The notes: generated by a model from the letters alone, not told the origin. Numbered from the stretch's first letter, positions 2,725 to 34,061 are shown. The stretch is DNA of 34,061 bases from an uncultured Pseudomonadota bacterium (GCA_937884235.1 CALGBT010000815.1:1-34061), one strand, 5' to 3'. Translations and numbers: made by a program.

Positions 2725-3432
2725 CTAGAGGGTTCGTCGGTGGAGGTCGAGGAAGGAGTCCGGCGGACACTCTTCAGCAATGCGAGCGGCGAGGCTGTCA
2801 ACTGCCATCTTGCGGGCTTCGGGAGACTCCCGATCCACATCCCAGGGCATATCAATAACTGTCACGCCCTGCTGCCGCAGAATCGACACCATGTGGGAAA
2901 TCTCGCGGTCGAGGTCCATCAGGTAACGGAGATCGATGCCGGACTCACACCGCCGCCCTTCGCGCTGCGACATGCGCGACTCAATGCGATTGCGTGAGAT
3001 CTCCGGGGCAACCAACATCCGGACACAGACGTTGGGCAACATCACTGAGGCTGTCATGGCGTGGTAGATATCGCGATAGGTATTGAACTCCCGCTGGGTC
3101 ATTCCACCATTCTTGAGTTGCAGCCGCGCGAAGCAGGTATCACCGAAGTAACTACGGTCGAGGACGGCATGGCCCTCGCCGCTCATGGCGTGCCACTGTG
3201 CCTGAAGATGCATCCGGTAGCGGGCCTGCAGCAAATGCACTTGCATGACAAAAGCCCAGCGCGCCTGGTCACCGTAGAAATCTGCCAGATAGGGATTGGC
3301 ATCGTTGGCTTCATCCGGCTCCATCTGGATCAAGGTATCATCTCCCAGGGCCGCACCGAGTTCTCTGGTCAACGAGCTCTTGCCAGCTCCGATAATCCCT
3401 TCCACGATCACTACTTTCCTGCGTCGCATCAT
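2725..3432 (-). CDS. deoxynucleoside kinase family protein (dAK/dGK/dCK-like)
   Basis: P-loop VVIVEGIIGAGKSSL, the dNK-family motif DRSYFGD, an arginine-rich lid (RNRIESRMSQREGRR), and a length of ~235 aa. Confidence 0.88.
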   Translation of the reverse strand: MMRRRKVVIVEGIIGAGKSSLTRELGAALGDDTLIQMEPDEANDANPYLADFYGDQARWAFVMQVHLLQARYRMHLQAQWHAMSGEGHAVLDRSYFGDTCFARLQLKNGGMTQREFNTYRDIYHAMTASVMLPNVCVRMLVAPEISRNRIESRMSQREGRRCESGIDLRYLMDLDREISHMVSILRQQGVTVIDMPWDVDRESPEARKMAVDSLAARIAEECPPDSFLDLHRRTL

Positions 3433-14800: not shown

Positions 14801-15533
14801 CAGTGAGACCCGCTTCGGCACAGAACCGCATGCCTTGACAGGTACCTATTTCATTAGCCACTTCACAGCCGGTCCAGAGCGACAACTCCACGGATCTTGA
14901 GGTGCAGGGGCAGACTCCGGCATCGGCAACACACTGCATGGTGGCGATGCCGTCCACGGTCTGGGCATCAACGCATGAAAAACCCCAGGGACAATCGCTG
15001 CCTTCAGCACAAACACTACCGCAGAACGCACCTTCGTCGCCGTAGTCCACGCAAACGTCCTCGGCACCGCTGGGACTCTTGCAGCTATCGCCACCATTGC
15101 ACGGCTTGCAGAGATTCGAGACATCGGACACGCAAATATAGACCACGTCGGGGTCAGCACCCGCCACCTGCTTGCACGACCATCCCGGGGGGCAATCCTC
15201 CTGGCAAGGAACCGTGCAAACCGCCTCTCCCATGTGCTCCACACACCAGCTCGACTGGCAATCGCCATTGCCCACGCAGGGGTCCAGAAAACATCCGGTT
15301 CCCGGCTCACACTCGACAAATGGCGCGTCCGGTCCCGAATCGAAACTCAACTCCGGCTCGATATAGAGGTCGGGCTCATCAGAAGCTTCCCCTGAGGAAG
15401 CCTCGTCCGGGACCGCAGATACGTCAGTCGTCGGGGTCGCATCCGGAACGTCGGCAACAGTAATTGTTGTCCCACCATTGTTGCAGGCAAAAAACATCAG
15501 AGTTGCGGCAAACAAAAAGCCAGTATTGCGCAT
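11880..15533 (-). CDS. giant cysteine-rich repeat lipoprotein, paralog 1 (C-terminal glycine-rich domain)
   Basis: ATG with GGAGG upstream. Lipobox MFFAC-NN followed by an acidic linker. Cys-rich head ends in CNGIDDDCDGEVDE. There are 12 bipartite 51-aa repeats (CDDGNxCTxxDxCxxGxC + CDDxNxCTxDxCxxxxGC). The C-terminus VFTYTGGAQTFTVPPGV...GGGGGG is a glycine-rich domain. Total length is 1217 aa. Confidence 0.92.
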   Translation of the reverse strand: MRNTGFLFAATLMFFACNNGGTTITVADVPDATPTTDVSAVPDEASSGEASDEPDLYIEPELSFDSGPDAPFVECEPGTGCFLDPCVGNGDCQSSWCVEHMGEAVCTVPCQEDCPPGWSCKQVAGADPDVVYICVSDVSNLCKPCNGGDSCKSPSGAEDVCVDYGDEGAFCGSVCAEGSDCPWGFSCVDAQTVDGIATMQCVADAGVCPCTSRSVELSLWTGCEVANEIGTCQGMRFCAEAGLTDCDATVPELESCNGIDDDCDGEVDEPNAVEGDYINPCNDDNPCTKDSCMGEAGCDHQVLSEGECADGDSCTVGDHCEAGVCTGLPIVCDDDNPCTDDLCNGLGGCTAEFNAGPCDDGDPCTVNDQCSQGECSGFAVDCECQDNADCAVLEDGDLCNGTLFCQLDKLPYQCFVDPGTVVTCPAPEGPDGVCVKASCDPGTGECALVPDHQGFACDDGDPCTVGDACFEGECGGGVPVVCDDANGCTDDSCDDNSGCTFVPNAEPCDDGNDCTLGDHCGGGDCLFEGLVDCDDGDVCTNDSCNPQGGCLYAHNSAPCDDQDLCTAADTCVQGQCQGQIAVACDDQNNCTSDSCDSKKGCQYVPNDGKCDDGNPCTLNDLCSGGLCVGKGWLDCDDANPCTSDACDPAGGCVHADNAAPCDDGNICTPVDTCAQGECQGSGALGCDDQNICTDDSCSPESGCVHTANGADCDDGNLCTLADICGAGSCKGTQAVSCDDDNLCTNDTCTPLQGCIHTFNTAPCDDGDACTVGEKCELGQCAGGGQLNCNDGNICTADSCDANVGCEFLPTAGVCTDFNACTTGDACDNGSCVPGGALDCDDDNPCTLDTCHPANGCEYTAIDGSCDDDNQCTKTDTCVDGVCVGSEPLECLDGNPCTDDGCSPAAGCTFIANDASCDDANACTTQDQCSQGACVGGPALTCDDSQECTNDSCEAGSGCLYTPVADGTACTQDGGIVCQTGTCVEYQPGNKVFTYTGGAQTFTVPPGVSTVRVVVVGGGGGGAGSHYGGGGSGYVLYGNYDVAGVVTVTVGGGGNGGVANTNDAPGSKGATSSFGGYLSASGGNGGNTNGSGGGNGGSGGGGAGNSGCAGKGGQGGSAGQNGCTYSGGSGGHFDNLAGAVLASLTAGAGGAAGSSSHSGGGGAGGLLIDGAGPTAGNGGASWSGKGGQGHGSGGGAGGYNGSRPTGGKGANGVVYVEW
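12630..14693 (-). repeat. in-frame tandem coding repeat array, 153-nt (51-aa) period, 12 units, split by a 75-aa insert
   Basis: The first Cys of the A half-repeat falls at aa 457, 508, 559, 610, 661, 712, 763, 814, 865 and 916, exactly 51 apart. Two more units precede the insert. Confidence 0.9.
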
Positions 15534-26398: not shown

Positions 26399-28597
26399 AT
26401 GAACTTCATCAAATCTGCCTCGTTGAGCATACTGCTGCTAGTCGCCACCATTGTCTGGGCAGAGGAAGCGCCCAGGCAAGACCCACCGGCCGAAACCTCA
26501 AACGATGTCGAGTTGGGGGCCGTGACTGTAACTGTCGACCGCGGCGAGCGGCGCAAGTTTGAGGTCAGGCGCTCCGTAGAGATTCTGGACGAGGACGGCA
26601 TTGCCCAGCGCCAGCCAAAGAGCGTCCCTGACCTCCTCGACGAGACTCCGGGGGTGATGGTTCAGAAGACCAATGCGGGGGCCGGTGCCCCCGTGCTGCG
26701 CGGCCTCGTCGGGCCGGACAATCTGATTCTCATGGACGGCATCAGGATCTCTAACAGCACCTACCGGACGGGCCCCAACCAGTACCTGGCGATGATCGAC
26801 CCATGGTCGCTGCGGGCCTTTGAACTGCTGCGCGGCCCTGGGTCTGTGCTCTATGGATCCGATGCCATGGGCGGGGTGCTCCATGCCATCACCAAGGATC
26901 CGCGCCGGCTTTCAGAGAGGGCGTGGGGACTGAGTGGACGCCTCTCCTTTGCCTCGGCTTACCCGGGGCTGGGTGGCTCAATCCAGGGAGATTTCCGTGA
27001 CGGGGACTACGCCGGCTATCTTGGCGCCACCTTCGATCACTTCGGCGAAGTCAGAGCCGGCGGCAACATCATCCAACCACTGAGCAGCTACCAGCGCGCG
27101 GCCGTGCGCCACAAGTCGGTAGTGGAACTCGCCCCCGGCTATCAACTCACCGCGGCAGTATTCGAAACCAGCATTCGCAACGCCGGCCGCGCCGACCAGC
27201 TCAACCTCGGCAAGCACAGCACCTACGACAACGACGACCTGCTCGCATATGTACGACTGGACCGCATCGGGGAAGGTTGGCAGCACCGCTTCCGGGTCAA
27301 CCTCAGCTACCATCTCACCAACGAGTTGGAGAGCGGAGTCCGCTGCGCCAGGACCGGCGACGTGGTCGCTGACCGGGCGGCTTGCCTCGCTGCGCAGCCG
27401 GACCAGCTCACGAGGCGGACCGAAATGCAGGACACGGTCCACACTCCGGGCCTTTTCGCCACCCTCGAATCCCGCTCCTGGGACAACCGCATGCGCACCA
27501 TCGTCGGGGCCGAAGGATACTTCGACTATGTCGACTCCTCGGCCCGGGTGGCGAAACCGGATGGGTGGGATTGGCAGGACGGTGAGCGCGGCCACTTCTC
27601 AGCAGGCTCGACCTATGCCTCCCTGGGCACCTTTCTGCGGGGCGAGCTCGACCTCATCAAGTCCGACAAATCCACGGTCACTGCCGATGCCGGCACCCGC
27701 CTCTCCTACTTCGCCGCGCATGCCCCTGACGTGCCGGGCCTGGGCAACGTGGATTACTCCCACGCAGGGCTCATCGGGTCCGCGGGAATTGGCTATCAGT
27801 ACGCTCAGCTGCTCCATCTCTACGCCGACTTCTCCCAGGGCTTCCGGGCAGCTAACCTGCAGGAGACCACGGAGATGGGCGACACGGGAATCTTCTTCGA
27901 GGTCCCCAACGATGGTCTCCGGCCGATTCGCTCCGATACCCTGGAGTTGGGCATGAAGCTCAACGCCCCCCACTTTCACCTGGGTATCTCCGGCTGGTAC
28001 AGCAAGTTGACTGACCTCTATGGGCGCGAGGTACTCACCGTGGCTGAGATCGCCGATCTTGGCCTTGACGAGGGCCTACTCTCCGGGCAGACAGTGGTGC
28101 GACGCATCAACCATGCTTCAGGGGACTACCGGGGCGTCGACCTCACCCTTGAGTCGCGCAGATTCAGCGGTTTCTCGGCGTACGGAGCCGTCTCCTGGAT
28201 CGATGGCAACGTCGAGGATGAGCCGGGCAGGTTCGTCAGCCCTCGCCGCCTGCCACCCGTGGCCGGGAGCGCCGGCCTGCGCTACGAAACGCCAGGCGGT
28301 GACATCTACGGCGAGTTCTTCATCCGCTGGGCGGCAGCCCAGAGCAACCTCAATCCCGAAGACGAGGCCGACTATCGAATCTGCGAAGACCCTGACCGTC
28401 CGGGGCAGTTGCTGGACGATTGTCAAGGAACCCCTGGTTGGGCGACCCTGAATTGGCGAGCCGGCCTGCTCGTCACCCCCAATCTCGCCCTTGACTTGCG
28501 GATTGAGAATCTTGGCGACACCCACTACCGGGTCCATGGCAGCGGCATCGATGCGCCGGGTTTCAATGGCATGGTTGAACTGCGCGGGACCTACTGA
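26399..28597 (+). CDS. TonB-dependent outer-membrane receptor
   Basis: There is a signal peptide. The plug domain shows ILDEDGIAQRQPKSVPDLLDETPGVMV...APVLRGL...LMDGIRI...LRGPGSVLYGSDAMGGVLHAITK. A long beta-barrel ends with an aromatic residue (LRGTY). The substrate is not inferable. Confidence 0.9.
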   Translation: MNFIKSASLSILLLVATIVWAEEAPRQDPPAETSNDVELGAVTVTVDRGERRKFEVRRSVEILDEDGIAQRQPKSVPDLLDETPGVMVQKTNAGAGAPVLRGLVGPDNLILMDGIRISNSTYRTGPNQYLAMIDPWSLRAFELLRGPGSVLYGSDAMGGVLHAITKDPRRLSERAWGLSGRLSFASAYPGLGGSIQGDFRDGDYAGYLGATFDHFGEVRAGGNIIQPLSSYQRAAVRHKSVVELAPGYQLTAAVFETSIRNAGRADQLNLGKHSTYDNDDLLAYVRLDRIGEGWQHRFRVNLSYHLTNELESGVRCARTGDVVADRAACLAAQPDQLTRRTEMQDTVHTPGLFATLESRSWDNRMRTIVGAEGYFDYVDSSARVAKPDGWDWQDGERGHFSAGSTYASLGTFLRGELDLIKSDKSTVTADAGTRLSYFAAHAPDVPGLGNVDYSHAGLIGSAGIGYQYAQLLHLYADFSQGFRAANLQETTEMGDTGIFFEVPNDGLRPIRSDTLELGMKLNAPHFHLGISGWYSKLTDLYGREVLTVAEIADLGLDEGLLSGQTVVRRINHASGDYRGVDLTLESRRFSGFSAYGAVSWIDGNVEDEPGRFVSPRRLPPVAGSAGLRYETPGGDIYGEFFIRWAAAQSNLNPEDEADYRICEDPDRPGQLLDDCQGTPGWATLNWRAGLLVTPNLALDLRIENLGDTHYRVHGSGIDAPGFNGMVELRGTY

Positions 28598-29616
28598 GTC
28601 ACCTCCCTCAGGGGCAGCCGGGCCATAATTGTCTCGGCCACCTGCTGGGGATTGTCATCATATCGCACCGTCAGCACAGGTATTGCGCGAGTCTGCAGCG
28701 CGGCGGCAGCCTCGGCGTTCTGCTTCTGGGCTTCATCGAAGGCAGCCGTACCCATGTATGGGCTGTAGAATTCCCCGGGTCCGGGACGGCGCGGCACGGC
28801 GCGGCTGGCAGCCAGTGCCGGCTCGGATTCAACCAGCACCACGAGGTCAGGCTCCAGCAGAAAGCCATCCACCGCGTCAAGGAGCGTGGTATCGCTGAGC
28901 TGCTCCAAATGCTGATAAGCCACCGAGGCAAGCGCGTAAAAACGCGTTACCACCACGGCCCCCCGCTGCAACGCAGGACGAATCTGCTGCTCCTGCCGGC
29001 TGAGCCGCTCGCAGGCGTAGAGCAGGGTCCGCTCAAAGGCATGGACTGGGTCAGGAGCGATGGTCTGGAAGCGTTCGACCATGAACTTCCAGAGCTCCGA
29101 TTCGAAATCGTAGCCGCTAGCCACCCCAGCCTTCCCGGAAGCACTGAGGTCGGCCATCAAAGAATCCCCGATGGCATCGAGGACGACACCATCAATGCCC
29201 TCGAGTGACACCAGACAACCGGTGCGAACCGCCAGCCGCTTCCAGGTCTGCAGCAGGCTGATACCGGCGTGTCCTGACAGGGTGCGCCCCAGCTGCAGCA
29301 CCGCGGTCCGATCCCGGCTGGTAAGCATCTCGTAAAGGCTCTCCCACTCCCGACGACCGGGTTCCAGGACCCGCTGGGGGCCCTTAGGCAGGAAGGCCTC
29401 TACCTGGCGCCCCAGGGCGGCACCCAGCTTGCACAACAGGGCGGCGCTGAAAGAGTACCGGCCACTTTCGAGGGACTTGAGGTGAGGGGCGCTGATACCC
29501 AGCTTCTGGGACAACTCCTCCAGGTTCATTTGGGCATCGAGGCGAAAGGCCTGGGCCCGAGCGCCGATGAAAGCGTTGAGTTCCTGGTCTTCGTCAGTCT
29601 TGCGCGTCCTGGGCAT
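28591..29616 (-). CDS. XRE-family HTH regulator fused to a thymidylate-kinase-like domain with degenerate P-loop
   Basis: The N-terminal HTH is MNLEELSQKLGISAPHLKSLESGRYSFS. The C-terminal ~210 aa are colinear with Tmk motifs. VSLEGIDGVVLDA stands in for IxxEGxDGxGKTT. VVVTRFYALASVAYQ stands in for DR[YH]xxSxxAYQ. PDLVVLVESEP stands in for PDLxxxLDVxP. Confidence 0.7.
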   Translation of the reverse strand: MPRTRKTDEDQELNAFIGARAQAFRLDAQMNLEELSQKLGISAPHLKSLESGRYSFSAALLCKLGAALGRQVEAFLPKGPQRVLEPGRREWESLYEMLTSRDRTAVLQLGRTLSGHAGISLLQTWKRLAVRTGCLVSLEGIDGVVLDAIGDSLMADLSASGKAGVASGYDFESELWKFMVERFQTIAPDPVHAFERTLLYACERLSRQEQQIRPALQRGAVVVTRFYALASVAYQHLEQLSDTTLLDAVDGFLLEPDLVVLVESEPALAASRAVPRRPGPGEFYSPYMGTAAFDEAQKQNAEAAAALQTRAIPVLTVRYDDNPQQVAETIMARLPLREVTQ

Positions 29617-29623
29617 TATTCCC

Positions 29624-31198
29624 CTAGTGAAGATCCTGTGTTCTGAACATCAACTCCTGGGCAAAGCGAAGACGCTCCAGTTGGTCAAGAAAGAACTGCT
29701 CCCAGGCACCGTTGCCGGCATACCACATCCCCCCCGGCTTGTCCGCAGTCAACTGGCGATAGAAGAAGAAGGAGTCATAGCTGATGCCGTACTCACCCCC
29801 CAATCCGTTGACACTAACCTCTGCAAAGGGGTTGCCCGTACAATCCAGGCCCGGATGGGCTGTGGGGAGGTAGTAGCGGTCTTCAGGCATCTTCGCCAGA
29901 GCCTCAGCAAGATGCTTGGGCTCGGCGGGCAAGGACTGGCTGGAGAAGCCGTAGAAGATGGCGCTGCCAGGTCCGTAGGACGGGGTCACCGAGTAGATCT
30001 GCCCCTGAGTTGTCGGATAGAACTTGTCCAGCTGGCCAGCTACATTCCATCCACCCTTGGCCGCGTGGGCCGCACCCATATGTGCATAGAGCAACGTCTC
30101 GTCATCCGGAATCGCTTGCTGGAACGTCCAGATCAGAATCTGCTCCCGCTCCATCATCATCTGCATCAGGTAGCTCTGGTCCCCGCCGCCCAAAGAGCCC
30201 ATCATGAAATCCTGGGAGACGAAGACCGCCCCCATCCAGAGGGAGTAGGCCAGGTACTCTACCTCTTCGCAGCTAGCCTCATCGGAGAGCGCGGCGCAGA
30301 TGGCCTCAATGTGGTCCAGCACCATCTTGTAGTAATCCTCGGCATCTTCCACGTATGCCGTCTCGAGGCCCATCATGCCGTAGCTCTGGATCTCTCGGGG
30401 GGCCGGCAGAGTATCAAGCAGCAACCCCACCGCGACATCATCGGTCATCTCGGCGGCAATAGCCGTCAACTGCTCATTGACCCAGGCCAGCCGCTGGGGC
30501 ACGTCTACCCCCACAACATCGAGGTCGTAGCCCTCCAGGACCAGCTCATGAGCTCGCTCCGGAAGCAGCCGGCGGAACATGTTCTCGCCATACATATCGG
30601 CCCCGATAGCCTGCATCGCCGCAGGATTTCCCGTGGCCAGAAAGTCCTGCAAGTCCGCAGTAGTATCCATGCCGATCTCCAGGGCCAGAACCCGCACCCC
30701 ATGGTACCGCACCAGATACTCAAAGAGGTCAGCGCTGGCTAGTCCGATCTCATTTGAACCGTGGACTTCGCCCATGAAGAAGGCCTGATGCCCCTCGAAC
30801 TCCTTGCCAAGAATCGAGAAGTCCCAGCCGTCAGCACCAGCCGCCGCACAACGCAACGGAAAGGCGTTGTTCTGCGCAAAAGTGGAAATTTCGTTGCTAG
30901 AAGTCGGTGCTGCTGTCACCGCCCCGCAAACCGCCAGTTCGGGTTGGTCGCAGAGACTGCTGGGAATCGTCACTTCGGGCTCTTCCACCAGATCCTCAAA
31001 GGGAACGACGTCCTCCCCCGCGACCTCGCCAACATTGGCGAGGTCCGCCTCCACGTAGACGTCCTGACCAAAGAGATCCGGCGCAGCCTCAACATCGTTC
31101 GTAACCTTGGAATCGCTACTGGACGAACAGCCCGCACCAAGCAGAAGAAGCGTTACCAGGAGAGAGAGGAAGTATGGTCGCAGCAAGGGAATCATCAT
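29624..31198 (-). CDS. erythromycin-esterase/ChaN/Tiki-superfamily-like lipoprotein
   Basis: Lipobox LLLGAGC-SS followed by an acidic linker. AFFMGEVHGSNEIGLASADLFEYLVRYHGVRVLALEIG resembles the GExTHGxxEF...ALE opening of erythromycin esterase-like proteins. LLYAHMGAAHAAKG resembles the second His motif. The start is ambiguous (ATG 31198 preferred, ATG 31258 possible). Confidence 0.5.
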   Translation of the reverse strand: MMIPLLRPYFLSLLVTLLLLGAGCSSSSDSKVTNDVEAAPDLFGQDVYVEADLANVGEVAGEDVVPFEDLVEEPEVTIPSSLCDQPELAVCGAVTAAPTSSNEISTFAQNNAFPLRCAAAGADGWDFSILGKEFEGHQAFFMGEVHGSNEIGLASADLFEYLVRYHGVRVLALEIGMDTTADLQDFLATGNPAAMQAIGADMYGENMFRRLLPERAHELVLEGYDLDVVGVDVPQRLAWVNEQLTAIAAEMTDDVAVGLLLDTLPAPREIQSYGMMGLETAYVEDAEDYYKMVLDHIEAICAALSDEASCEEVEYLAYSLWMGAVFVSQDFMMGSLGGGDQSYLMQMMMEREQILIWTFQQAIPDDETLLYAHMGAAHAAKGGWNVAGQLDKFYPTTQGQIYSVTPSYGPGSAIFYGFSSQSLPAEPKHLAEALAKMPEDRYYLPTAHPGLDCTGNPFAEVSVNGLGGEYGISYDSFFFYRQLTADKPGGMWYAGNGAWEQFFLDQLERLRFAQELMFRTQDLH

Positions 31199-31297
31199 GC
31201 ACCTCGTGGCATCGGGAACGGTCCGGCGACCACCTGTCGCGGTGAGCATCATACTCATTTGAGGTGATTATTCAATCGGTGGGACGCAGACTCGGAC

Positions 31298-34061
31298 TTA
31301 GTAGGTGACCTTGATCTGGCCATGCCCCATGCGGACATCAGCCGTGGTGCTGCTCGCGGTAACACCCCCCACGTAGGAGGACCCGCCTCCACCGCCGCCA
31401 CCGCCGCAGTTCTGGTGGCCGCCGCCACCGCCACCGTAGTATCCGCCGCCGCCGGAGCCAGCGCTGCCGCACACATCACCGTCAGCCTCCCCCGCTCCCT
31501 TGCCACCCTGGCCAAGTTCCCCGGCAGTGCCAACGATGTAGTCGCAGCATGCAAGCCCCGTTGCCCCGGCCGCGCCGCCGCCAGCCTGCGTCCCCGCCTT
31601 CCCCCCTCTCCCGGGGGGCTGGTTGGGAATGCTGTCTGTTCCATCCTGGCCCGAAGTGCCGCCACCGCCGCCGCCGACTCCGCCCGTCCAGCCGCCAGAG
31701 CCGAAGCTGTATCCCGCGTGCCCGCCACCGCCGCCGGCAACGATCTTGCGGTCGCTCAACGCGGTGCCGCCGACCCGCACATCCGAGCCGCCGCCACCCC
31801 AGCCTTTGGCCCAGGAACTGACGTTCTTGCCGCCACCGTTCCAGCCCCCGGCACTACCTTTGCCCCCCACATAGAGGTGCAGAATCTGGCCGGGGGTGAC
31901 CGCCAGCGTACCAGTGGCCTTGCCACCCTTGCCGCCGTCGGGTACTTCGAAGCCATTACCTCCACCCTGTGCGCCATAGGCTTCAACCACCACCGACTTG
32001 ACACAAGGCGGCACCGTCCAGTCCTGCGTTCCGCCAGTGTAATCAAAGGTAATGGAGCCGGTCTCGCAGGCATCGATACACTCACCAGCCCAGCACTCCA
32101 GATCCTGGCCACACTCCGTACCGTTTGCCACCGGCACAAACTGACAGCCAGCCCCGGGGGCGCACGCATCGTCAGTGCACCCATTGGCGTCATCGCACTC
32201 CACCGCAATCCCCGGCTGACACTGGCCCGCACCACAGATGTCGCCATCGGTGCAGGCGTCGGCATCATCACAAGGTGCGGTGTTGGGAGTGTTCACACAG
32301 CCATCGACGGGGTGGCAGGAATCCGTGGTGCAAAGCTCATTGTCGTTGCAGCTGATCCCGGCCCCACCACCACACACGCCCCCGGCACAGAATTCATTGA
32401 CGGTACAGGCATCACCGTCGTCGCAGGGGACCGTATTGGGCACGTGCACACACCCGGCAACGGCATCGCAAGAATCATCTGTACACAAGTCGTCATCGTC
32501 GCAATCCAGGCCCGGACCGGCCTTGCACATGCCCCCTCCGCAAGCGTCGGCAACGGTACAGGCATTACTGTCATCGCAGGGCGCGGTGTTGTTCAGGAAT
32601 TGGCAACCGGTGTTGGGGTGACAGCTGTCGGTGGTGCACAGGTTACCATCTTTGCACTCCAGATTGCCGCTGCTGATACAATCCCCGAGGTGACAGTGGT
32701 CACCGGTGGTGCAAACGTCGGCATCGTCACAGGGGACGCTGTTGAGCAGGTGCAGGCAACCCACCGCCGGGTCACAACTATCGGTGGTGCAGAGGTTATC
32801 GTCGTCGCACCCGGGCGCAGTACTTCCCTTGCAAACCCCGGCAACGCAAGTGTCTACCAGCGTGCAGGCATTACCATCGTCACAGGCCGCCTCCTTGGGG
32901 ACAAACTGGCAGCCAAGTTCGCTGTCGCAGCTATCGTCGGTGCAGGGATTCTCGTCGACGCATGCCGCGGCCGGCCCCGGAGCGCATTCCCCGGCCAGGC
33001 AATGGTCCCCGACGGTGCACACATCACCATCCTGGCAAGGGGCCTGATTGGGCGTGTGGACACAGCCTGTATCCGGGTCACAGCTGTCATCCGTGCAAGG
33101 GTTATCGTCAGCACAAATTGCCGCGACGCCGGCGACACACTTACCGACCTGGCAACTGTCGCCGATGGTGCAAGCATCACCGTCATCGCACGCGAATTCA
33201 TCATGGTCCGGGATCAGACTGCACCCTCCCGCGGCCTCGAGGTCGCAAATCGATTGCTGGCAAATAGCATCAATACCGGTCGGAGCCGGACACTCCACCA
33301 CCGTCTCCGGCAGCACCACACACTGATAAGGCCACTTGTCCTTGTTGCAGCCTAACGTGCCATTGCAGAGGTCTCCGTCTTCGAACTGGGCACAGTCCTC
33401 GTCTGCCTGACAGTCACATGCCACCGGCGTCCCGAAACAACTGCCGTCCCCACAATAGTCACCGACTGTGCAGGCATCCCCGTCATCGCAGGCTGAAGTG
33501 TTGTTGGTGAACTCGCAGCCGCCAAAACCGTCGCAGGCATCATCGGTGCAGGGATTGCTATCATCACAGGCCACCGGGGAACCAGCGCAGACTCCCTCTG
33601 CGCAATGGTCACCGACGGTGCAAGCATCGCCATCAATGCACTCACCCGCGCTCAGCGCCTCATGAACACAGCCGGCCTCTCCTTTGCAGAGATCAGTGGT
33701 GCAAGCATTGCCATCGTCGCAGGGGCCCACATACTGACCCTCGTGGAATGTCCCCTCGTCCACATCACCATCACAGTTGTCGTCAACCCCATTGCAGACC
33801 TCGGCTGCGGGCACCTGGGCATCGCAGTCCCCCAGGCCATCGTCGAGGCAAACCCGCTGGCCCACACAGGCGCCAAAGTCGTTGGCCCGGGAGCAGGGGG
33901 TCCACAACCCCAGAGATACCGAGGTATCGGTGCAGGGGCAGACCCCCGCATCCGCCACGCACTGGACAGTGCTTACACCGTCCACCGTAACCGTCTCCAA
34001 ACAGGAGAAACCCCATGGGCAGTCCTCGTCAACGGCACACTTCGCCCCGCAGAAACTACCC
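31298..34061 (-). CDS. giant cysteine-rich repeat lipoprotein, paralog 3 (5' end beyond window; C-terminal glycine-rich domain)
   Basis: The frame stays open to nt 34061: upstream of the ORF-track TTG it reads GSFCGAKCAVDEDCPWGFSCLETVTVDG, colinear with paralog 1 GAFCGSVCAEGSDCPWGFSCVDAQTVDG. It carries CNGVDDNCDGDVDE, 9 bipartite 51-aa repeats and the same insert. The C-terminus is ITFDYTGGTQDWTVPP...AYGAQGGG...GGGGSDVRVGGTALSDRKIVAGGGGG. Confidence 0.92.
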   Translation of the reverse strand, partial: GSFCGAKCAVDEDCPWGFSCLETVTVDGVSTVQCVADAGVCPCTDTSVSLGLWTPCSRANDFGACVGQRVCLDDGLGDCDAQVPAAEVCNGVDDNCDGDVDEGTFHEGQYVGPCDDGNACTTDLCKGEAGCVHEALSAGECIDGDACTVGDHCAEGVCAGSPVACDDSNPCTDDACDGFGGCEFTNNTSACDDGDACTVGDYCGDGSCFGTPVACDCQADEDCAQFEDGDLCNGTLGCNKDKWPYQCVVLPETVVECPAPTGIDAICQQSICDLEAAGGCSLIPDHDEFACDDGDACTIGDSCQVGKCVAGVAAICADDNPCTDDSCDPDTGCVHTPNQAPCQDGDVCTVGDHCLAGECAPGPAAACVDENPCTDDSCDSELGCQFVPKEAACDDGNACTLVDTCVAGVCKGSTAPGCDDDNLCTTDSCDPAVGCLHLLNSVPCDDADVCTTGDHCHLGDCISSGNLECKDGNLCTTDSCHPNTGCQFLNNTAPCDDSNACTVADACGGGMCKAGPGLDCDDDDLCTDDSCDAVAGCVHVPNTVPCDDGDACTVNEFCAGGVCGGGAGISCNDNELCTTDSCHPVDGCVNTPNTAPCDDADACTDGDICGAGQCQPGIAVECDDANGCTDDACAPGAGCQFVPVANGTECGQDLECWAGECIDACETGSITFDYTGGTQDWTVPPCVKSVVVEAYGAQGGGNGFEVPDGGKGGKATGTLAVTPGQILHLYVGGKGSAGGWNGGGKNVSSWAKGWGGGGSDVRVGGTALSDRKIVAGGGGGHAGYSFGSGGWTGGVGGGGGGTSGQDGTDSIPNQPPGRGGKAGTQAGGGAAGATGLACCDYIVGTAGELGQGGKGAGEADGDVCGSAGSGGGGYYGGGGGGHQNCGGGGGGGGSSYVGGVTASSTTADVRMGHGQIKVTY
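32114..33721 (-). repeat. in-frame tandem coding repeat array, 153-nt (51-aa) period, 9 units, split by a 75-aa insert
   Basis: The A-unit first Cys falls at ORF-track aa 271, 322, 373, 424, 475, 526 and 577, exactly 51 apart. Two more units precede the insert. Confidence 0.9.

Follow-up and report, generated by a model that had tools for sequence, protein, structure and literature searches.

A helix-turn-helix protein with a thymidylate kinase-like domain

We analysed a 34,061-nucleotide (nt) stretch of DNA from an uncultured Pseudomonadota bacterium (GCA_937884235.1 CALGBT010000815.1:1-34061), referred to below as the window, with positions counted from its first letter. Our subject is a gene on the minus strand at 28591..29616, an open reading frame (ORF) of 341 amino acids (aa) with an ATG start, which encodes an XRE-type helix-turn-helix (HTH) domain, a linker and a degenerate thymidylate kinase (Tmk)-like domain. 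The original prediction for this gene, made from the sequence alone, was of an XRE-HTH fused to a Tmk-like domain, an architecture borne out by Pfam, Foldseek, VIA-align and profile alignment. The Tmk-like part has lost its catalytic motifs, and we argue below that it may have become a ligand sensor.

The DNA-binding HTH domain spans residues 8–78 (29383..29595, minus strand), as delimited by Pfam, the structural model and structure matches; over residues 24–72 it scored 25.6 bits with Pfam HTH_3 (PF01381; cut-off 23), with HTH_31 at 24.2 bits. It is followed by a helical linker (residues 85–128; 29233..29364, minus strand), defined by the model and alignment and carrying conserved W91, L98, R101 and R103. 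The catalytically degenerate Tmk-fold domain occupies residues 131–337 (28606..29226, minus strand) according to Foldseek, VIA-align and hhalign. Pfam Thymidylate_kin (PF02223) matched residues 196–278 (40.7 bits, cut-off 27, E 2.7e-10), covering only positions 57–140 of the 185 in the profile, and TIGR00041, the NCBIfam dTMP-kinase equivalog, scored 43 bits, under its cut-off of 83.25. NCBIfam NF006015, which describes BzdR-type regulators, gave a partial match to residues 4–118, that is, the HTH and most of the linker (35.2 bits, E 7.2e-9, cut-off 204). Homologues whose tblastn match begins at query residue 1 share the N-terminus M-x-R-x-[RK]-K, and the reading frame is intact across all family members.

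The C-terminal domain has a thymidylate kinase fold

An AlphaFold2 model of the window protein, built from 15 family sequences, had a mean predicted local distance difference test (pLDDT) score of 82.5. It places five helices in the HTH domain (residues 8–75; pLDDT 87–94 over residues 11–70), three low-confidence helices in the linker (85–97, 100–113 and 121–128; pLDDT 51–77) and an alpha/beta domain at residues 134–333. VIA-align matched the HTH to C.AhdI (Z 12.4, root mean square deviation 1.0 over 66 residues) as well as to ImmR, SinR and P22 c2.

Among the Foldseek matches listed for the Protein Data Bank, all were thymidylate kinases (best E 9.8e-8, template modelling (TM) score by target up to 0.81). 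A VIA-align structural search against representatives ranked Tmks first to seventh (Z 17.3–19.8), with deoxynucleoside kinases (Z 14.8–16.3), adenylate kinase (14.6), NadR (13.5–13.6) and shikimate kinase (10.9) below them. Profile–profile comparison by hhalign of 29 family members with 20 canonical Tmks returned a probability of 99.87 and an E value of 9.2e-32. The domain does not fall into a different, P-loop-less fold, since the top structural and profile matches are all Tmks. We conclude that the C-terminal domain is, as modelled, a Tmk fold.

The catalytic motifs of the kinase are lost

Tmks carry a P-loop of the form GX4GK[ST], and type II Tmks have a basic LID with a catalytic Arg (PMC3169407). 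The sequence strings quoted in the original prediction are all present: VSLEGIDG at residues 136–143, VVLDA at 144–148, LLYACERLSRQEQQIRPALQRGAVVV at 198–223, ASVAYQ at 230–235 and PDLVVLVESEPALAASRA at 256–273. The Tmk P-loop E-G-I-D-G-S-G-K/T-T-T aligns with E139-G-I-D-G-V-V-L-D-A148 (29173..29202, minus strand), where E, G, D and G are kept and G-K/T-T-T is lost, and the model begins a helix at residue 143, directly after this remnant. VVLDA lies opposite S-G-K-T-T in alignments to human Tmk, to the Tmk profile and to Aquifex Tmk, so that its proposed substitution for GxGK[ST]T, with loss of the P-loop Lys, holds in all three. Across the family the remnant reads EG[IV][DNH]G followed by hydrophobic residues (V/L/I at 144–146); besides the Lys, the P-loop has lost its second Gly and both Thr/Ser. 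When all 34 family sequences were scanned over their whole length, not one contained a Walker A motif of the form [AG]xxxxGK[ST] or GxG[KT][ST]; no intact copy lies elsewhere in the protein.

The D-R-[YFH] motif, in which the Arg binds the dTMP phosphate, has fared similarly. The original prediction placed TRF at this site, a register that is off by one: T224 lies opposite the Ser/Thr preceding D-R-Y, and R225-F226-Y227 (28936..28944, minus strand; family consensus P-F-F) lies opposite D-R-Y itself. The R90A mutant chain of Aquifex Tmk (5xb5) marks the Arg column independently, because its sole difference from the wild type falls on the column of the family's Phe. Under the TRF register the Arg would be kept; under the correct register Asp and Arg are both lost, and the earlier conclusion that the catalytic Asp-Arg pair is absent stands on these alignments. 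Pro stands in for the DRY Asp in 19 of 29 sequences (Arg in the window protein), and the Arg, invariant in Tmks, has given way to Phe in 25 and to Tyr in three, with one sequence retaining Arg.

In the counterpart of the Tmk LLFAADR motif, L198-L-Y-A-C-E-R-L-S-R-Q208 (28993..29025, minus strand), the aromatic Y200 and R204 are retained, D has become E203, and C202, R207 and Q208 are new conserved residues. Only the first Arg of the basic LID persists (R272; Arg in 21 and Lys in five of 29), the remainder reading P278 ... F283-Y-S-P-Y287. This last segment (28756..28770, minus strand), modelled at pLDDT 90–92, is an aromatic/proline motif peculiar to the family that takes the place of the LID and is conserved at F283 (29/29), S285 (26/29), P286 (25/29) and Y287 (27/29).

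From these alignments we propose that the Tmk-derived domain can neither bind ATP-Mg nor transfer phosphate. It would be very surprising if the protein were nonetheless still an enzyme, a kinase or NTPase with an unconventional nucleotide site combining catalysis and regulation as NadR does. The fold is intact, basic residues (R204, R272 and the new R207) lie near the old site, and canonical Tmks of this lineage already lack the Walker Lys (GAGTTT), so a missing Lys alone is no proof of inactivity. The loss here exceeds the Lys, however, taking in three more P-loop residues (the second Gly and both Thr/Ser), the Asp and Arg of DRY and the basic LID.

The degenerate domain is conserved and not decaying

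Twenty-nine alignment columns are at least 85% conserved in canonical Tmks. The family keeps 20 of them (E139, G140, D142, G143, L198, L199, F/Y200, R204, P214, L216, G219, V222, Y234, Q235, P256, D257, L258, A269, R272 and a Tyr column where the window protein has N300), has swapped five for another family-conserved residue (Pro to D170, Gly to W176, Asp to E203, Arg to F226 and Ser to A230) and is variable at the other four. A further 17 positions are conserved specifically in the family, including R207 and F283 (both 29/29), E203 (28/29) and Q208 (27/29). Twelve of these 17 lie in or beside the LLFAADR helix, the DRY/SS segment or the LID, as placed by alignment to Tmk motifs, where the family-specific positions are 195–197, 202, 203, 207, 208, 226, 230, 283 and 285–287.

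Comparison of the Tmk-like domain of the window with that of a locus 82% identical to it (L003) over 211 codons gave a proportion of nonsynonymous differences (pN) of 0.149 against 0.778 for synonymous differences (pS), with synonymous sites saturated. The pattern of substitution indicates that the degenerate domain is under purifying selection, not decaying. We give almost no credence to the view that the gene is a decaying fusion or a mis-called, functionless ORF: the architecture is rare and patchy (five of 301 genomes), but its frames are intact, family members with 23–86% identity conserve their motifs, overall pN between the window and L003 is 0.13 against saturated synonymous sites, and the model is a confident one (mean pLDDT 82.5). 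Purifying selection, along with residues newly conserved where the active site used to be, is consistent with a pseudo-enzyme that has been repurposed.

The kept and the new residues also bear on whether the dead domain is an oligomerization scaffold only, pairing two HTHs with no ligand and leaving regulation to protein abundance or another factor. Tmks are typically homodimers (PMC3169407), XRE regulators must dimerize to bind palindromes, and the hydrophobic replacement at 144–146 could just fill an empty ATP site. A scaffold would have no need, on the other hand, to retain D142, F/Y200, R204, Y234 and Q235, nor to acquire new polar residues such as E203, R207 and Q208 at the old catalytic centre, and BzdR dimerizes via its N-terminal domain, not its kinase-like domain (PMC3602430). 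A two-copy homodimer prediction for the window protein (score 0.16, mark 0.42) speaks neither for nor against dimerization. On balance we think a pure scaffold unlikely, though it deserves to be kept in view.

The pattern of retention and loss can be read against a Tmk with bound substrate. In Mycobacterium tuberculosis Tmk, thymine is stacked on Phe70 and hydrogen-bonded by Arg74 and Asn100, while Asp9 binds the sugar hydroxyl (3'-OH) and Arg95 contacts the phosphate (PMC3619541). We infer that the counterparts of Phe70, Arg74, Asn100, Asp9 and Arg95 are Y/F200, R204, S231, D142 and F226, respectively, and that Y234 of the family corresponds to Tyr103. The base- and sugar-contacting positions would thus be mostly retained, and the phosphate-, Mg- and ATP-contacting ones lost. 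As the retained positions are the putative thymine base and sugar contacts, they lend some backing to the earlier suggestion that the ligand is 'possibly a nucleotide'.

A rare family with a single origin

The original prediction pointed to other genomes as a place to look for the same architecture, and it is indeed found there, although rarely. A single-sequence search returned 15 full-length relatives with 33–86% identity, and precomputed Pfam assignments give PF02223 plus an HTH family in 14 of the 15, the exception being the N-terminally short P0015. At source, P0015 is named 'hypothetical protein' and P0005 'dTMP kinase'. The latter name is almost certainly wrong, and it could mislead metabolic reconstructions of myxobacterial genomes. 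A filter-only hidden Markov model search of 1.84 billion representative proteins yielded 30 at E <=1e-30; these comprise approximately 22 full-length clusters at 50% identity, and the others are fragments or multi-HTH proteins. The full-length fusion (>400 bits) is present in five of 301 sampled genomes of the phylum (G000, G204, G119, G292 and G044), where 10 more matches at approximately 76–84 bits cover the Tmk part only and are ordinary Tmks. A metagenome scan added two further loci, one of them duplicating L007. Word-indexed searches with P0075 and with the family alignment revealed no new members among the candidates passed by the index.

The named loci are all from Myxococcota assemblies, the cultured Paraliomyxa miuraensis among them, apart from one record labelled 'uncultured Gammaproteobacteria bacterium'. 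Here, L007, L014 and L038 have identical match statistics, the upstream sequence of L038 is that of L007, and L014 comes from G044, which a genome search places in the phylum of the window. Mistaken binning or naming probably explains the Gammaproteobacteria label.

A maximum-likelihood tree built on all 64 rows places the fusion family in one clade with a Shimodaira–Hasegawa-like approximate likelihood ratio test (SH-aLRT) value of 92, rising to 99 for a core of 27 rows; on this tree the fusion has a single origin. Two stand-alone Tmks form its sister group, and support for that placement is only moderate (93). Descent from a myxobacterial GTTT-type Tmk was considered and is not shown by the tree. 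Two divergent members stand out. P0047 has lost the P-loop and retains the Arg of DRY (E-R-Y), and could be an evolutionary intermediate. P0075 is a Lys/Ile/Asn-rich singleton with 23% identity, the same architecture and E-Y-Y at the DRY position. An intermediate-like member such as P0047, together with a housekeeping Tmk in each genome checked (below), offers natural material on the conversion of an enzyme into a regulator.

Stand-alone thymidylate kinases in the same genomes

The genome from which the window derives (87% complete) encodes a separate canonical Tmk (142.6 bits; locus L001:408-974 on contig C634). Canonical Tmks are also present in the fusion-bearing genomes G044, G119 and G292 (135.6–166 bits), and every fusion-bearing genome checked carries one. 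These enzymes have two P-loop types, GKS in G044 and G292 and GTTT in G000 and G119.

The universal presence of a canonical Tmk in the genomes checked would suit a pseudo-Tmk that senses a protein and not a small molecule, for instance by using the conserved Tmk dimer interface to pair with the genuine Tmk, thereby tying transcription to the state of thymidylate synthesis. Many pseudo-enzymes do work by binding their active paralogues. Against this, the host Tmks are of two P-loop types, and the positions most conserved in the pseudo-Tmk family sit at active-site motifs and not on a separate surface. We therefore consider a protein partner of this kind distinctly unlikely.

The canonical Tmks of these bacteria are themselves unusual. 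That of the window's own genome, like those of many Myxococcota, has the P-loop E-G-[IL]-D-G-A-G-T-T-T-Q with Thr at the Walker A Lys, DRY and the remainder being intact. This Thr-for-Lys P-loop was seen in 8/8 sequences of one set and 3/5 of another (loci including L015-L021 and L024-L026), and in 10 of the 20 canonical Tmks closest to the family profile; genome G245 (97% complete) has no stand-alone Tmk besides a Lys-less one. At three loci in G245 and G150 (L027, L028 and L032), very long open frames of 582–1107 aa contain Tmk-like domains (62–71 bits to PF02223) whose P-loop, G-S-G-K-[TS]-T, is intact; these represent further Tmk-domain fusions in Myxococcota. The window itself contains an ordinary deoxynucleoside kinase gene at 2725-3432 on the minus strand (PF01712, E 7.4e-29), for a P-loop kinase of related fold that has no evident tie to the regulator.

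Genomic neighbourhood and candidate control sequences

Immediately upstream of the regulator gene lies a 544-aa ORF (29624..31258, minus strand) encoding a putative lipoprotein with an erythromycin-esterase-like predicted fold. The junction between the two genes (29617..29626, minus strand) consists of the upstream TAG stop, 7 nt with a GGGGA Shine-Dalgarno-like run and the ATG of the regulator; the purine-rich AGGGGAA just upstream of this ATG overlaps the stop codon. The 544-aa protein had no Pfam match even at E up to 10. It has a lipobox-like N-terminus (L-L-G-A-G-C), its Atlas model matches models of the erythromycin-esterase family (TM by row 0.70–0.73), and from its sequence it looks like a lipoprotein. 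Further upstream is a Dicty_CTDC/glycine-rich (lipo)protein gene (31298-34060, minus strand). On the other side, a convergent TonB-dependent receptor gene (26399..28597, plus strand) overlaps the 3' end of the regulator gene by 7 nt.

The lipoprotein/regulator/TonB-receptor arrangement, with its tight stop, purine run and ATG, is kept only in L003 and L037 (79–82% identity). Given the 7-nt gap and this synteny, co-transcription with the upstream genes is plausible in the lineage of the window. Loci L004-L009 lack these neighbours, and theirs include MFS and PFOR genes, a gene with a metallo-beta-lactamase fold, sigma-54 activators and a protein kinase. As the distant members occur in unrelated neighbourhoods, the 'paralog-3 operon' to which the gene was originally assigned cannot define the function of the family. 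Benzoate-pathway domains are absent from all 18 large ORFs of the window. A reading of the locus as a defence system was set aside: PADLOC gave only weak HTH or Tmk-fragment matches (best E 1.6e-5, HTH_VI), with none for the neighbouring genes.

Upstream of two orthologues from sister subclades we found the palindrome TGAACAGRAWTTWTYCTG, 64 nt away in L009 (7916-7945) and 129 nt away in L008 (1668-1690). The shared AT-rich pattern is TGAACAG-R-A-W-TT-W-T-Y-CTG, with the core CAGRAW-TT-WTYCTG and, at both loci, TGAACAG as the left flank; the L009 arms reach 14 nt with 79% complementarity. It is a candidate operator. A search of the window with the pattern gave a single hit, at 15285, which differs from it at one position; chance alone would give 0.66 hits, and this site was rejected. 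Across 28300-31500 of the window, one promoter-like and three terminator-like sites were no excess over shuffles. Five DNA sequencing runs, from three studies, contain the stretch wholly or partly, with no RNA run among those listed. Elsewhere in the family, L005 (7730-7770) and L007 (7720-7750) have a good sigma-70-like promoter (TTGACA, 17 nt, TATGGT) approximately 250 nt before the start codon, hence a long leader; Rfam at gathering thresholds gave no matches in the window and seven loci, and so no known leader RNA for the long L005 and L007 upstream regions.

A pseudo-enzyme as a putative ligand sensor

Taken by analogy with BzdR, these features lead us to regard it as somewhat more probable than an even chance that the protein is a one-component regulator, either a repressor or an activator, whose dead Tmk domain is a ligand sensor. 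In this scheme the N-terminal XRE HTH would bind DNA, and the helical linker would connect it to a Tmk-descended domain that has given up ATP-Mg binding and phosphotransfer and acts instead as the signal-receiving module. A small molecule other than ATP might occupy the remodelled former dTMP/active-site cleft, in which putative base- and sugar-contact positions are retained and which is now rich in aromatic residues. The open/closed motion typical of the kinase fold could then be relayed through the linker to alter operator binding. We propose such a mechanism because the same logic has been shown experimentally for BzdR. It presumes that a ligand of some type is bound, that the protein sits as a dimer on a palindromic operator and that it has a set of target genes, each of which is deduced here. 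The original prediction of a pseudokinase repurposed as a sensor accordingly divides in two: a repurposed pseudo-enzyme fits the purifying selection, the new conserved active-site residues and the separate Tmk, and sensing itself is a proposal.

Several points weigh against a sensor. The pocket is drawn by alignment to known Tmk motifs, and the numbering match to M. tuberculosis Tmk comes from motif spacing and profile alignment, not pairwise alignment. With several phosphate-contacting positions lost, the site may not accommodate dTMP itself. Family members have different gene neighbours, which give no hint of an effector pathway, unlike bzdR, which lies beside the bzd genes. Finally, the palindrome pattern of L008 and L009 has no convincing match in the window, where the regulator gene lacks an intergenic region of its own.

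If the domain does sense a small molecule, the residues that remain make a base, a nucleoside-like or another planar compound more likely than a triphosphate. A specific version of this idea is that the dead Tmk domain still recognizes a nucleoside of thymine or another pyrimidine, or a related compound, with the protein reading the thymidine/thymidylate pool directly. It is prompted by the retention of the putative stacking aromatic, the Arg, the Tyr-Gln pair and the P-loop Asp, and at this level of detail we think it rather improbable. Were it true, it would be a previously unknown bacterial coupling of gene expression to DNA-precursor supply, and in the lineage of the window it would act on the operon of the surface lipoprotein and possibly on the neighbouring gene for TonB-dependent uptake. 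Should the ligand turn out to be a pyrimidine nucleoside or nucleotide, the protein would be a new type of DNA-precursor sensor.

Comparison with known systems

The domain resembles Tmk (PF02223, TIGR00041, EC 2.7.4.9) in its fold and in the motifs EG-D-G, LLF-A-x-x-R, I-x-P-x-L-x-x-G-x-x-V, A-Y-Q, P-D-L and the first LID Arg. Unlike Tmk, the family has no Walker A Gly-Lys-Ser/Thr, no DRY Asp/Arg and no basic LID, is fused to a DNA-binding domain and falls under the TIGR00041 cut-off. XRE-cupin and other two-domain XRE one-component regulators likewise join an XRE HTH to a small-molecule-sensing domain (PMC7901475, PMC10965056), although the sensor fold there is a cupin and not a Tmk-derived P-loop-kinase fold. 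DdiA of Myxococcus xanthus, a small XRE protein with two C-terminal helices, was also considered and is unrelated.

NadR, which combines an HTH with nicotinamide mononucleotide adenylyltransferase and ribosylnicotinamide kinase domains, is comparable as a regulator with a P-loop-kinase-fold domain for a nucleotide-related metabolite (Z 13.5–13.6), and one feature neighbour in the Atlas language-model space is an HTH_3 + NadR/Ttd14 AAA_28 cluster. NadR retains enzyme activity and has an extra adenylyltransferase domain, and the titles of the matched structure entries call it trifunctional, whereas the window protein has a single degenerate Tmk-type domain.

The closest parallel is with BzdR and the other regulators that join an HTH-XRE to a shikimate-kinase-like domain (NF006015/PRK08154). 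BzdR of Azoarcus sp. CIB has an HTH-XRE at residues 1–90, a linker and a shikimate-kinase-like domain at 131–298; the last has no kinase activity, binds benzoyl-CoA and undergoes a ligand-induced conformational change, loss of catalysis being required for its role as a switch (PMC3602430). The window protein shares the order of XRE HTH, linker and C-terminal P-loop-kinase-fold domain, here predicted to be without kinase function, and its other Atlas feature neighbours are HTH_3+SKI fusion clusters (score 0.84), which we treat as a lead only. The differences lie in the origin and state of the C-terminal domain. Ours is derived from Tmk and not from shikimate kinase (Z 19.8 versus 10.9, with no PF01202 match at E up to 10), NF006015 matches its N-terminal part only and far below the cut-off (35.2 bits versus 204), there are no benzoate genes nearby, and BzdR retains a Walker A where the window family has none. 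We found no prior description of an HTH/XRE plus thymidylate-kinase-like regulator in open-access full text or bioRxiv; the idea of an XRE regulator with a sensor derived from an enzyme is not new, and a Tmk-derived form lacking Walker A appears to be new within the literature searched. If the sensor role is correct, this family would add to BzdR a second, independent instance in which a small-molecule kinase of the P-loop type became the sensor of an XRE regulator; here the source is thymidylate kinase, and Walker A has been wholly erased.

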